From Candidatus Hydrogenedentota bacterium (lineage in GTDB: Bacteria > Hydrogenedentota > Hydrogenedentia > Hydrogenedentales > SLHB01): a stretch of 64,000 bases of DNA. Where the stretch lies: positions 17,459-81,458 of the forward strand of contig JARKSN010000316.1 in the NCBI GenBank assembly GCA_029974275.1, written 5' to 3'. The position numbers are program-made. Of the stretch, positions 40,601 to 43,600 are shown piece by piece. How positions within the stretch are numbered: position 1 is the first letter of the stretch; each line of letters starts with the position of its first letter.

Positions 40601-43600
40601 GACTGTCCCCGGCGTGACGTTGGTCGAGGGAACCGTCGAAGAATCGGACTTTCCTCCGGCGAGCCAGGACTGCATCGTGATGATCGCGGTCCTCGAGCAC
40701 ATGAAAGACCCGAAAGGCGTGCTGGCGCGCGTCACGCGTTGGCTTGCTCCGGGCGGGCTCTTGCTCGTGCAAACGCCCTACATCGCAAACTTCATCCGGG
40801 CCAAACGCTGGTTTCCCAAGTTGCCGATACATTTTGAAGCGCCGCGGCATCTGTTCGATTTTTCGCCGTCGACATTGCCGCGATACTTTGCGGAAGCGGG
40901 CCTGCGCGACGTTCGCACGGAGATCGCGCGCCCGTATTCAAGCACGGGCCCTCTGGGCTCGCTGCTCATTTGGGGCGTCAAGGCGCCGGGTTTGTTGTTG
41001 TATGCGCTTACGGGAGGACGCTACGTGTATCCCTATTCGAGCGCCATTGTGGTGCACGGCGTGCGCGAACGCGCCTAGATCGCCGTGGGGAAGAAACAAG
41101 GAGACGCCACTGTGCAAGCTGTGATCATGGCTGCGGGTCAATCGACGCGCACCTACCCGTTGACCCTCACGCGGCCCAAGCCGCTGCTTCCGCTTCTGAA
41201 CAGGCCGGTGCTCGCACACCAGCTCGACGCGCTGCATGGAACCATCGACGAGGCGATCCTCGTCGTCGGCTACATGCGCGAACAAATCGAGACAGCATTT
41301 GGCGATGACTATCGCGGAATCCGCCTGCGGTACGTCGTGCAGGAAGAGCAGAAAGGCACGGGGCACGCAATTCTGCAGAGTGCGCCGCACATCAAAGGCC
41401 CCTTCCTCGCCATGAACGGAGACGACCTGTATGCCGCGACGGACCTTCGACGGTTGGCGGCGTCGGACGATCCCGCAGCTCTTGTGAAGCATGTCGAGGA
41501 CCCGCGGCTCTATGGCATCTACGAAGCGGACGGCGATGGTCGCGTCAAGCGTCTCGTCGAGAAACCTGCGGAGGTGTTCTCGACCCTGGCCAACGTGGGC
41601 GCATACCGCTTCGAGCCGTCCGTGTTCGACGTTTTGAAGCGCACGCAGCCCTCCGCGCGGGGAGAGATCGAGATCACATGCGCCATCCAGGCCCTCGCGG
41701 AACAGGCGACGTTCCGCGTCGTCGAAATGGAAAGCTACTGGCTTCCCATCGGGTATCCGTGGCATCTGCTCGACGCCAACGAATATCTGCTGAATGCCTG
41801 GCTCGAACATCGCATTGAAGGCGAAGTGAGCCCCGCCGCGCACATCAACGGACGCGTCAACATTGGCAAAGGAACCGTCGTCCGTTCTGGCGTCGTCATC
41901 GACGGGCCGGTCCTCATCGGCGAAAACTGCCATATTGGCCCCAACTGCTGGCTACGGCCCGGCGCCACGATTGGCAATCACTGCAAGGTTGGCCACGGCG
42001 TCGAGATCAAGAACTCGATCCTGATGGATCATGCCGCCGCGCCGCATCTCAACTATGTCGGCGACAGCATCATTGGCGAACGCACCAACCTTGGTTGCGG
42101 CACGGTGACCGCGAACGTCCGCCACGACGGAAAGAATATTGCGTCCGTTGTGAAAGGCGAAGTCATCGACAGCGGGCGCAGAAAACTGGGCGCCATCATC
42201 GGCGATCACGTGCATACGGGGATCAACACGTCCATCTACCCAGGCCGCAAGTTCTGGCCGCACACATACAGCTTTCCGGGCGAGGCCGTCCGCAAAGACG
42301 TCGTCGATACGCGCCGCACGCCGCAAAAATAAGCCGTTGGGGGGCGTAACCGCCGAATGATCCGCTTCGCTAGGACTCTATCGAAGGATCCGAATCTGGG
42401 CGGTCATCCGGAAGGTTCAGGAGACTTTTCAGGGCGCCAAATGCTTGCATGCCCGAGGGGGGCGCCGCATCGCGATAGACGGCTGCGGCTCCCCGAGCGC
42501 CGGTGCGTTCATAGGCCTCGTGCGCATCGTCGTGACAGTACAAACACAGGAGCTCCCAATTGCTGCCATCGCTCGGGTTGTTCTTGTGATTGTTGTCTTT
42601 GTGGTGCACGGTGAGCTCGCGGAGGTTTTTCCCGGAAAATTCCCGGCCGCATCGGGCGCAAACATGGGGAAACAAAACAAGGGCCTGCTCACGATAGGCC
42701 GATTGCGATGGCGTCTTCTCGAACCGAAGAGCAGCGGGAGTCGCCTGTTTTTCCAGCTTCGAAGGTTTCCGTTTCTGCGGCATGAGTTTCTCCTGTTTCA
42801 CTCGGGCGGAGTCTACCCCATTATCGGTTTTTCGAACTCGACATCGCAGTAGAGGCAGCGGCTATGCCGCGACGACGAGACGCGATGGCAGACAGGACAT
42901 TCGACCGCCATCGCGGTCATGCGACCGTCCTGGACTCCGTCGCGCAAATCGATCTCGAGAGCCTTTTCTTCAAGCTGTCTGTCGGTAAGCTTGGCGCGTT
43001 CGCGCAGCAGTTCCCACAGAGCTTGATTGAGAAGTTGCAGACGCCCGATGGTCTGTTCCAACACGCGCATGCGCTGTTCAAGACTTGCGGTCTGGGAACG
43101 CGCCTGCGTGTCGGCCGTATTCGGCGCGGAGCCGCTTCCTGCATACCAGATGCCACCCATGCCTAACATGACGATTCCCTCCTTGTTTCAGCAGCGCCCA
43201 TCAGGTTGGCCGCGCATGCCGCTGTCAGAACAGTGCAGTCTGCTGCGGCGCCTCGGGCGGTTTAAGGCCGATGTGGACGTATGCGCGGGGCGTGGCGACG
43301 CGGCCCTGCTGGGTGCGCTTGATGAACCCAACTTGGATCAGAAACGGCTCATGGACTTCTTCAAGCGTCTGGGATTCCTCGCCCACCGCAACGGCTAGCG
43401 AGGAGAGTCCCACCGGGCCGCCATTGAATTTCTCAATCAGTGTATGCAGGATGGCGCGATCCATGTCGTCCAACCCAAGTTCATCGACGCGCAACAACCG
43501 CAACGCAGCGTCCGCCATTTCCTGCGTGATGGCGCCCGTTCCCTTCACCTGTGCATAGTCGCGCACGCGCCGCAACAGGCGGTTTGCAATACGCGCCGTG

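Follow-up and report, generated by a model that had tools for sequence, protein, structure and literature searches.

An archaeal-type GlmU and a NagU/UAP1-type pyrophosphorylase as predicted sources of UDP-GlcNAc in Hydrogenedentales, an order without canonical GlmU

In bacteria, GlmU is regarded as essential and nearly universal and as a target for antibiotics. Alternatives to it have already been reported as "not rare." Among archaeal-type enzymes, MJ1101 has reportedly been characterized, and ST0452 from Sulfurisphaera (Sulfolobus) tokodaii (TIGR03992, Arch_glmU; PDB 2ggo and 5z09) has been solved. The consulted portion of a review assigns the acetyltransferase activity of ST0452 to H308, Y311, and N331, and, together with PDB titles, indicates that the enzyme also acts on other sugar-1-phosphates (PMC4909775). 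In Staphylococcus aureus, according to the available text of a recent preprint, the UAP1-like enzyme NagU makes most of the UDP-GlcNAc and is a main uridylyltransferase, operating beside an impaired GlmU (bioRxiv 10.64898/2026.06.23.733835). The same text describes NagU in PVC bacteria, Clostridia, and others, many of which carry no full-length GlmU, and leaves open how GlcN-1-P is acetylated in many of these organisms. Excerpts of further literature touch on the topic (PMC10087520, PMC6329318, PMC3888555, and PMC10632474). Within the open literature, to which our search was confined (subscription papers lay outside its scope), no published report of an archaeal-type GlmU swap in Hydrogenedentota was found; the available preprint text contains neither "Hydrogenedent" nor "archae," although further taxa may appear in its supplementary tables.

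The window analyzed here is a stretch of 64,000 nucleotides from a Candidatus Hydrogenedentota bacterium of the order Hydrogenedentales (assembly GCA_029974275.1, contig JARKSN010000316.1, positions 17,459 to 81,458), and the relevant features are collected in Table 1. Comparisons were made with 121 genomes of the order (84 of high quality) plus 12 further ones, 133 in total, and with an outgroup of only two genomes (G121 and G122) from other orders of the phylum.

Table 1. Features of the window discussed in the text. Conservation refers to 20 long loci of the UAP cluster, taken from large contigs and spread across families.
Feature	Coordinates	Strand	Family or evidence	Conservation
pal, OmpA-family peptidoglycan-associated lipoprotein	15245..15772	+	PF00691, 82.8 bits	18/20 loci
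cpoB/ybgF	15816..16742	+	TIGR02795, 96.3 bits (cut-off 90.1)	18/20 loci
BadF-family sugar kinase, 336 aa from ATG	16863..17873	+	PF01869	19/20 loci
DUF1573 Ig-like protein, lipoprotein-like N terminus	17878..19077	+	PF07610	20/20 loci
Small Cys-rich (zinc-ribbon-like) protein, 127 aa	19119..19502	+		homologues in 10/20 loci
UAP1/AGX1/NagU-type UDP-GlcNAc pyrophosphorylase (predicted), 482 aa; last in cluster	19504..20952	+	PF01704	
Archaeal-type GlmU (TIGR03992), GDD/WxP subtype, 406 aa	41112..42332	+	profile, sequence, and fold	

The archaeal-type gene has a GTG start preceded by AAGGAGA and encodes a sugar-1-phosphate nucleotidyltransferase domain (residues ~1 to 230) followed by a left-handed beta-helix acetyltransferase domain (~235 to 397). 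Its product belongs to TIGR03992, scoring 483.8 bits against a cut-off of 292.1 over model positions 2 to 393, and falls outside both the canonical GlmU model TIGR01173 (158.5 bits; cut-off 366.85) and TIGR03991 (96.3 bits; cut-off 225.3). ST0452, which has the same two-domain architecture and length, is its best solved relative by sequence (E = 1e-80) and by fold; the predicted structure (pLDDT 97) gives a TM score of 0.92 at 36% identity to ST0452. The protein shares with canonical GlmU the HLxYxGD signature and presumably the same two reactions, but it is ~50 aa shorter and has a different linker geometry (TM ~0.5 to canonical GlmUs). The counterparts of the three acetyltransferase residues of ST0452, namely, H312, Y315, and N335, are invariant in 120/120 homologues, and the signature H[LF][STN]Y[LIV]GD occurs in this protein alone among 27,692 six-frame open reading frames of the source genome.

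The N-terminal domain keeps the equivalents of ST0452 G9, R13, K23, D99, E146, and K147, and G9, R13, K23, Q77, G82, D104, E150, and K151 are invariant across all 120 homologues. The position of Y97 is naturally Asn, as in the Y97N variant of PDB 5z09, and that of Gly11 is Ser. A further difference concerns Asp208 of ST0452, which we take to be the second metal ligand: the corresponding position (212) is Pro in the window protein and Pro, Ala, or Ser in 120/120 homologues, never Asp, and an additional Asp (Asp105, creating a GDD motif) is present in 119/120. A census of 133 sequences, those with letters at both columns among 135 of 150 cluster representatives (370 to 460 aa), found Asp105 only in 61, Asp212 only in 50, neither in 22, and both in none; 80 relatives' loci chosen by the GDD pattern were left out of this count. 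The absence of Asp208 marks a subtype within TIGR03992, common to DPANN members, of which no characterized representative was found. Repeated coevolution was considered as the origin of the mutual exclusivity and rejected, since the GDD sequences form a single clade (99/95), and so the switch was probably one event.

Canonical glmU is gone from the order, as the survey's finding had held. None of the 133 genomes (0/121 and 0/12) exceeded the TIGR01173 cut-off, which 9 of 14 controls passed; TIGR03991 (alt_bact_glmU) was above its cut-off in none of 135 phylum genomes, and the controls also stood at 0/14. All 22 TIGR01173 candidates in the source genome were scored, and the best, at 84 bits, was the archaeal-type gene of the window itself, which was also the best tblastn match in that genome to both outgroup GlmUs. 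The outgroups G121 and G122, searched as the order was, have canonical GlmU (501 and 513 bits) in the arrangement tRNA-Gln-glmU-prs-rplY-pth (neighbor names read from translations), and neither has a TIGR03992 protein above the cut-off. Within the order, tRNA-Gln lies 43 to 171 bases upstream of prs in 29 of 30 loci, drawn as the best 30 of 38 genomes with a match (at the 30th, the available upstream sequence ends after 209 bases), and in the source genome this site is internal to a 123-kb contig. The vacated slot, the presence of glmU at that place in the outgroup, and the position of the site within a contig together indicate that the loss was a real deletion. Demand for UDP-GlcNAc persists, as glmS and glmM (546 bits), both already noted in the survey, pass their cut-offs in the source genome, as do murA, murG, and lpxC; yvcK/glmR gave no match there.

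The archaeal-type gene, which lies outside the tRNA-Gln-prs slot, exceeds the TIGR03992 cut-off in 123 of the 133 genomes (114/121 and 9/12) and is nearly always single copy. The survey had proposed that it covers the GlmU step; as the sole HL.Y.GD protein of a genome with a vacated glmU slot, and with relatives near glmS/glmM, it is the best candidate for the steps of canonical GlmU, as predicted from sequence. It stands alone in the order, with no neighbor conserved beyond three to five loci. Across 41 loci from the order and of KSB1 type, 30 of which had flanks of just 1.5 kb, neither glmS nor glmM was found beside it, compared with glmS and/or glmM within 5 kb at 51 of 72 non-Hydrogenedentales loci. 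Its GC and GC3 match those of gyrA/gyrB and so bear no trace of recent transfer.

Among the best 80 of 600 matches, a sample selected by the GDD pattern, the closest named relatives from outside the order are Woesearchaeota, Aenigmatarchaeota, and Nanoarchaeota, together with KSB1/Caldithrix, KSB3, and Patescibacteria. A 52-row tree (LG+G4 without a mixture; outgroup rows including one Pyrococcus) recovers the order as one clade (100/100), sister to KSB1/Caldithrix (97/70), with both inside a 97/98 group that contains 26 DPANN rows. Records labeled Methanosarcinales (1- to 2-Mb genomes) sit among the DPANN rows and two labeled Nitrospirales sit within the clade of the order; all were treated by tree position. 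The nesting was dropped as proof of the donor, given the sampling (capped at the best 80 of 600 matches), the model, and an AU test in which a clade of the 26 core DPANN rows that excludes the bacteria was not rejected (P = 0.405); DPANN archaea are thus a candidate donor only. One archaeal genome (G145, locus L103) is unpublished, and its publication requires the permission of its depositors; it supplies 1 of 39 archaeal genomes, 1 of 72 loci, and one tree row, its protein also served as the example protein in two of the comparisons, and no conclusion hangs on it. An atlas search also returned look-alikes of archaeal-type GlmU in Chloroflexota, Planctomycetota, and Nitrospinota clusters, and bacterial carriage as such is therefore not unique.

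The second enzyme, carrying PF01704, lies closer to UAP than to USP or UGP. Its best PDB match is human AGX1 (E = 1.4e-82, query residues 3 to 449), and E values against solved families run from 1e-82 to 1e-42 for UAP, compared with 1e-17 for USP and 1e-8 or weaker for UGP. It shares with human AGX1/UAP1 and Entamoeba UAP (1jv1 and 3oc9) the PF01704 fold, the nucleotide loop, and the sugar-pocket motifs, and GGQGTRL..PK, EYSE, GN..IH, and FVFD are kept across 50 sequences. Residues R109, K116, E291, N316, H320, F369, F371, and K396 are present, which we take to be the counterparts by role of the catalytic Arg/Lys and of sugar-pocket E303, N327, H331, F381, F383, and K407 in AGX1. In contrast to human and fungal UAP, which have Asn223, the order has His211 (50/50), as does 3oc9, named Entamoeba UAP by its depositors; no GNA1 or AGM1 partners were identified, although GNAT acetyltransferases lay outside the screen. 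A UAP-like gene occurs in 115 of 121 order genomes and in 83 of the 84 of high quality. The exception is G064, from which pal and the kinase are missing too; it was rejected as a natural loss of kinase and UAP because the absence of pal makes an assembly gap probable. UAP-type genes are found in both GlmU-bearing outgroups as well, unlinked to pal/cpoB and 40 to 44% identical to those of the order, which indicates that UAP did not come in to compensate for the missing glmU. A plasmid search for a NagU-like comparator returned two Lachnospira records only.

The UAP gene closes a cluster ordered pal-cpoB-kinase-DUF1573-(small Cys-rich gene)-UAP. The survey had placed it behind pal, cpoB, and a kinase, an order that stands in 18 to 20 of 20 loci, but it had omitted the Cys-rich gene. 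The product of that gene has no Pfam match, and its best atlas hit (0.87, with all hits below 0.9) is a lead only. Gaps of 43, 120, 4, 41, and 1 bases from pal to UAP, the last between the Cys-rich stop and the UAP start, suggest a single transcript. A promoter/terminator scan gave no excess over shuffles, and expression data (contigs only, from four runs with small word shares) reach tRNA-Arg, pal, and cpoB but no gene after them and are therefore uninformative. In outgroup G121, the kinase already adjoins pal-cpoB as pal-cpoB-(one gene)-kinase, with UAP on another contig, indicating that UAP joined an older kinase-pal-cpoB block.

We consider it probable that these observations reflect xenologous displacement, with the archaeal-type GlmU performing both steps alongside the NagU/UAP1-type enzyme. 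The ancestor of Hydrogenedentales would have acquired an archaeal-type GlmU, encoded by a stand-alone gene and belonging to a DPANN-like subtype, and would afterward have lost canonical glmU by deletion from its place between tRNA-Gln and prs. In the de novo route, GlmS and GlmM would supply GlcN-1-P, and the beta-helix domain of the archaeal-type enzyme, the only evident GlcN-1-P acetyltransferase of the cell, would acetylate it with acetyl-CoA. GlcNAc-1-P would then be uridylylated by two enzymes, the N-terminal domain of the same protein, in which Asp105 has probably taken over as second metal ligand from the Asp208 position, and the NagU/UAP1-type enzyme. The latter probably predates the swap, with vertical descent from the outgroup copies no more than a possibility at 40 to 44% identity, and from its place in the pal-cpoB envelope cluster, it could provide additional uridylyl transfer for peptidoglycan and lipid A. 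The window enzyme differs from ST0452 in its host, a bacterium with peptidoglycan and lipid A genes. Counting against this reading are the absence of Asp208 from all 120 homologues and the prevalence of Ser/Cys at position 190 in the order, a subtype for which no characterized member was found, the lack of a glmS/glmM neighbor in the order, the small archaeal genomes without UAP having been picked for glmS/glmM adjacency, the action of ST0452 on other sugar-1-phosphates, His211 in UAP (shared with Entamoeba UAP), and an outgroup of two genomes.

Every part of this system belongs to a known family, its enzyme functions are predicted, and the hosts are uncultured, which tempers its interest. The displacement of an essential cell wall gene across the order by a DPANN-like enzyme, alongside a NagU-type enzyme, is judged to be real. 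The swap is clean and datable, with the empty slot still visible, and it offers one answer to what acetylates GlcN-1-P in NagU-bearing bacteria. It also points to a large GDD subtype, spanning DPANN, CPR, KSB1, and Hydrogenedentales, that is assayable in E. coli.

The survey had regarded UAP as a likely salvage route fed by a GlcNAc kinase. That label for the kinase was a guess, since the protein scores 96.3 bits on NagK_SO3507 (NF046058), below the cut-off of 370. Among solved structures, its best relatives are S. tokodaii hexokinase, the MurNAc/GlcNAc kinase 8zo3, and human NAGK, which places it nearest to C6 kinases whose specificity is broad or mixed. BadF/ASKHA kinase motifs are common to it and to C. 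acetobutylicum-type MurK, human NAGK, and the S. tokodaii enzyme, but the Trp of the NAGK GGWG motif is replaced by Leu, Ile, or Phe in 20/20 sequences. GlcNAc, GlcN, and MurNAc are the candidate substrates.

Salvage of the eukaryotic kind, in which the kinase acts on GlcNAc from recycling, the phosphate is transferred to C1 by a phosphomutase, and UAP then forms UDP-GlcNAc with no deacetylation, does not exclude displacement and strikes us as unlikely, if worth serious attention. Kinase and UAP are linked behind pal-cpoB in 19/20 loci, and neither NagA nor MurQ was found in the source genome, where deacetylation would thus offer GlcNAc-6-P no way out. The mutases of that genome are GlmM and a PgmG/AlgC-like second mutase only, and a general mutase of this sort could possibly serve. 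For MurNAc, many genomes of the order also possess a distinct kinase-MurQ fusion: MurQ matches occur in 30 of 41 genomes (15 above the cut-off), and each of the three loci inspected shows MurQ joined to a second kinase. On the other hand, NagA-like genes in 33 of the 41 genomes, all below the cut-off, would bypass UAP, and the AGM1 model PF21405 matched 0/41, with no positive control giving a signal. Moreover, UAP is unlinked to pal/cpoB in the outgroups, even in G121, where the kinase adjoins them. The relatives of the kinase do not fix its substrate, and a glucosamine kinase, for which GspK is a precedent, would feed GlmM directly. As far as the consulted text goes, the characterized homologue NagU is a main de novo uridylyltransferase (bioRxiv 10.64898/2026.06.23.733835), and a related MurK is reported to make the 6-phosphate (PMC10465942, in part). 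Salvage is unproven: the product of this kinase family is the 6-phosphate, UAP needs the 1-phosphate, and no AGM1-type mutase was found in the uncontrolled search of 41 genomes.

A division of labor like that in S. aureus is rather unlikely. The archaeal-type enzyme would then be mainly an acetyltransferase with a weakened N-terminal domain, and NagU would carry out most or all uridylyl transfer. The described pair, likened here by description and not by sequence, also joins a UAP1-like monofunctional uridylyltransferase to a bifunctional enzyme (bioRxiv 10.64898/2026.06.23.733835, available text). Unlike in S. aureus, the partner in Hydrogenedentales is archaeal type and not a canonical or truncated GlmU, the context is pal-cpoB, and the Asn169 lesion is absent. 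The changes D208 to P and D190 to S/C favor such a division (the TD-motif position 190 is Asp in 4/38 order sequences versus 25/38 archaeal ones), as do the near-universal UAP of high-quality genomes, G064 apart, and the UAP found in two of three KSB1/Caldithrix carriers. However, 115/120 homologues retain N161, at the position where a Ser causes the impairment of S. aureus GlmU, and N/C-domain tree-length ratios of 1.44 (38 order sequences) versus 1.79 (38 archaeal) indicate an N-terminal domain without relaxation in the order. The same D208-to-P subtype also sits beside glmS/glmM in archaea without UAP: PF01704 was not seen in 38 of 39 archaeal genomes, which are small, of uncertain completeness, and picked for that adjacency, suggesting that the GDD subtype may do both steps unaided. 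A dead N-terminal domain, proposed from D208 to P, is weakened by these archaea without UAP and by the absence of relaxation.

Displacement and salvage might also be joined, such that this diderm order builds peptidoglycan and lipid A on a DPANN-derived enzyme with a rewired pyrophosphorylase site, its metal ligand shifted from the WxD strand to the GDD motif, coupled to a eukaryote-like salvage path (kinase to general phosphomutase to NagU) coexpressed with pal-cpoB. We hold this combination to be quite unlikely. If true, salvage would be the only recycling route in genomes without NagA and MurQ, such as the source genome.

It is highly improbable that the archaeal-type enzyme acts for a different sugar (GalN, Glc, or the dTDP pathway), with UDP-GlcNAc made by an unrecognized GNA1-like acetyltransferase and UAP. 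TIGR03992 is a subfamily model, the gene of the window has no informative neighbors, and ST0452 is promiscuous, as seen in part of a review (PMC4909775). However, the gene is single copy, its near-universal presence coincides exactly with the lack of canonical glmU, and genomes that keep glmU do not carry it; glmM is retained; and the closest relatives lie in glmS/glmM clusters.

That a canonical glmU is present but was missed, through assembly gaps or divergence, has practically no chance of being right and is already largely refuted: all order genomes are drafts and the order survey scored 12 candidates per genome, but every candidate was scored in the source genome, the slot is empty in 29/30 loci, and the identical search recovers GlmU in the outgroups. 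A canonical-type GlmU N-terminal domain, absent from the source genome, does occur fused to a galactokinase-like domain in 24 of the 133 order genomes.

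Apart from the archaeal-type GlmU, canonical GlmU-type sequence occurs in the order as part of a fusion. Among the 133 order genomes, 24 encode a protein of ~830 aa in which a canonical GlmU-type uridylyltransferase domain is fused to a galactokinase-like GHMP kinase. This fusion is a candidate one-protein sugar-1-kinase/pyrophosphorylase for salvage. The fusion gene of one order genome, G064 (L172:4855-6333), contains a long poly-C/G run, which is probably an assembly artefact; the same genome also lacks pal, the BadF-family sugar kinase, and the UAP1/AGX1-type gene (UAP).

A second large protein, of 1,110 aa, is UAP/USP-like in its C-terminal part, and its N-terminal part reads, by sequence, as a GHMP kinase. 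A GalU-like gene adjoins its gene. Frames of 1,141 to 1,180 aa resembling this protein are found in G064 and in G121, a same-phylum outgroup genome with canonical GlmU. In all three loci inspected (L196 to L198), a BadF-type kinase is followed by MurQ in one frame of 606 to 645 aa; most MurQ matches in the order lie in frames of 600 to 770 aa.

Among the relatives, the glmM gene (L088:3-1358) adjoining an archaeal glmU of the GDD type, the subtype with an extra Asp105, scores as bacterial GlmM (TIGR01455, 615 bits, over the cut-off), and gene flow in the UDP-GlcNAc pathway may therefore have run in both directions. Paralogues without the acetyltransferase signature occur in DPANN archaea (e.g., L107, L109, L115, L116, L127, L141, L150, and L154). 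Of 80 loci, 12 carry a YvcK/CofD-family gene, and most of the loci with a signature-less paralogue are among these 12. The Caldithrix genome G174 combines archaeal-type GlmU and UAP with a 349-aa frame (C27:100402-101388) that, judged by its match to TIGR01173 (positions 4 to 332, 305 bits), is a truncated canonical GlmU.

Within the window, Pfam gave no matches for the four minus-strand ORFs at 20956-31266. The 517-aa ORF is, we presume, similar to DNA photolyase.

Coordinates of additional features (G, genome; C, contig; L, locus)
Feature	Position	Strand	Remark
N6/N4 DNA methylase and BglII-type endonuclease	window 10687-12233	+	inserted between gyrB and gyrA
tRNA-Arg(CCG)	window 14922-14997	+	directly upstream of pal
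2241-aa ORF and three adjoining ORFs (447, 307, 553 aa)	window 20956-31266	-	converge on UAP gene
517-aa ORF	window 37467-39020	+	
1110-aa protein	G000:C240:9680-13009 (L208)	-	C-terminal part UAP/USP-like, E 1e-11
GlmU-type/GHMP kinase fusion, example	L171:5033-7549	-	
Two tandem lpxC-like genes	G000:C231:6297-8619	-	each over cut-off
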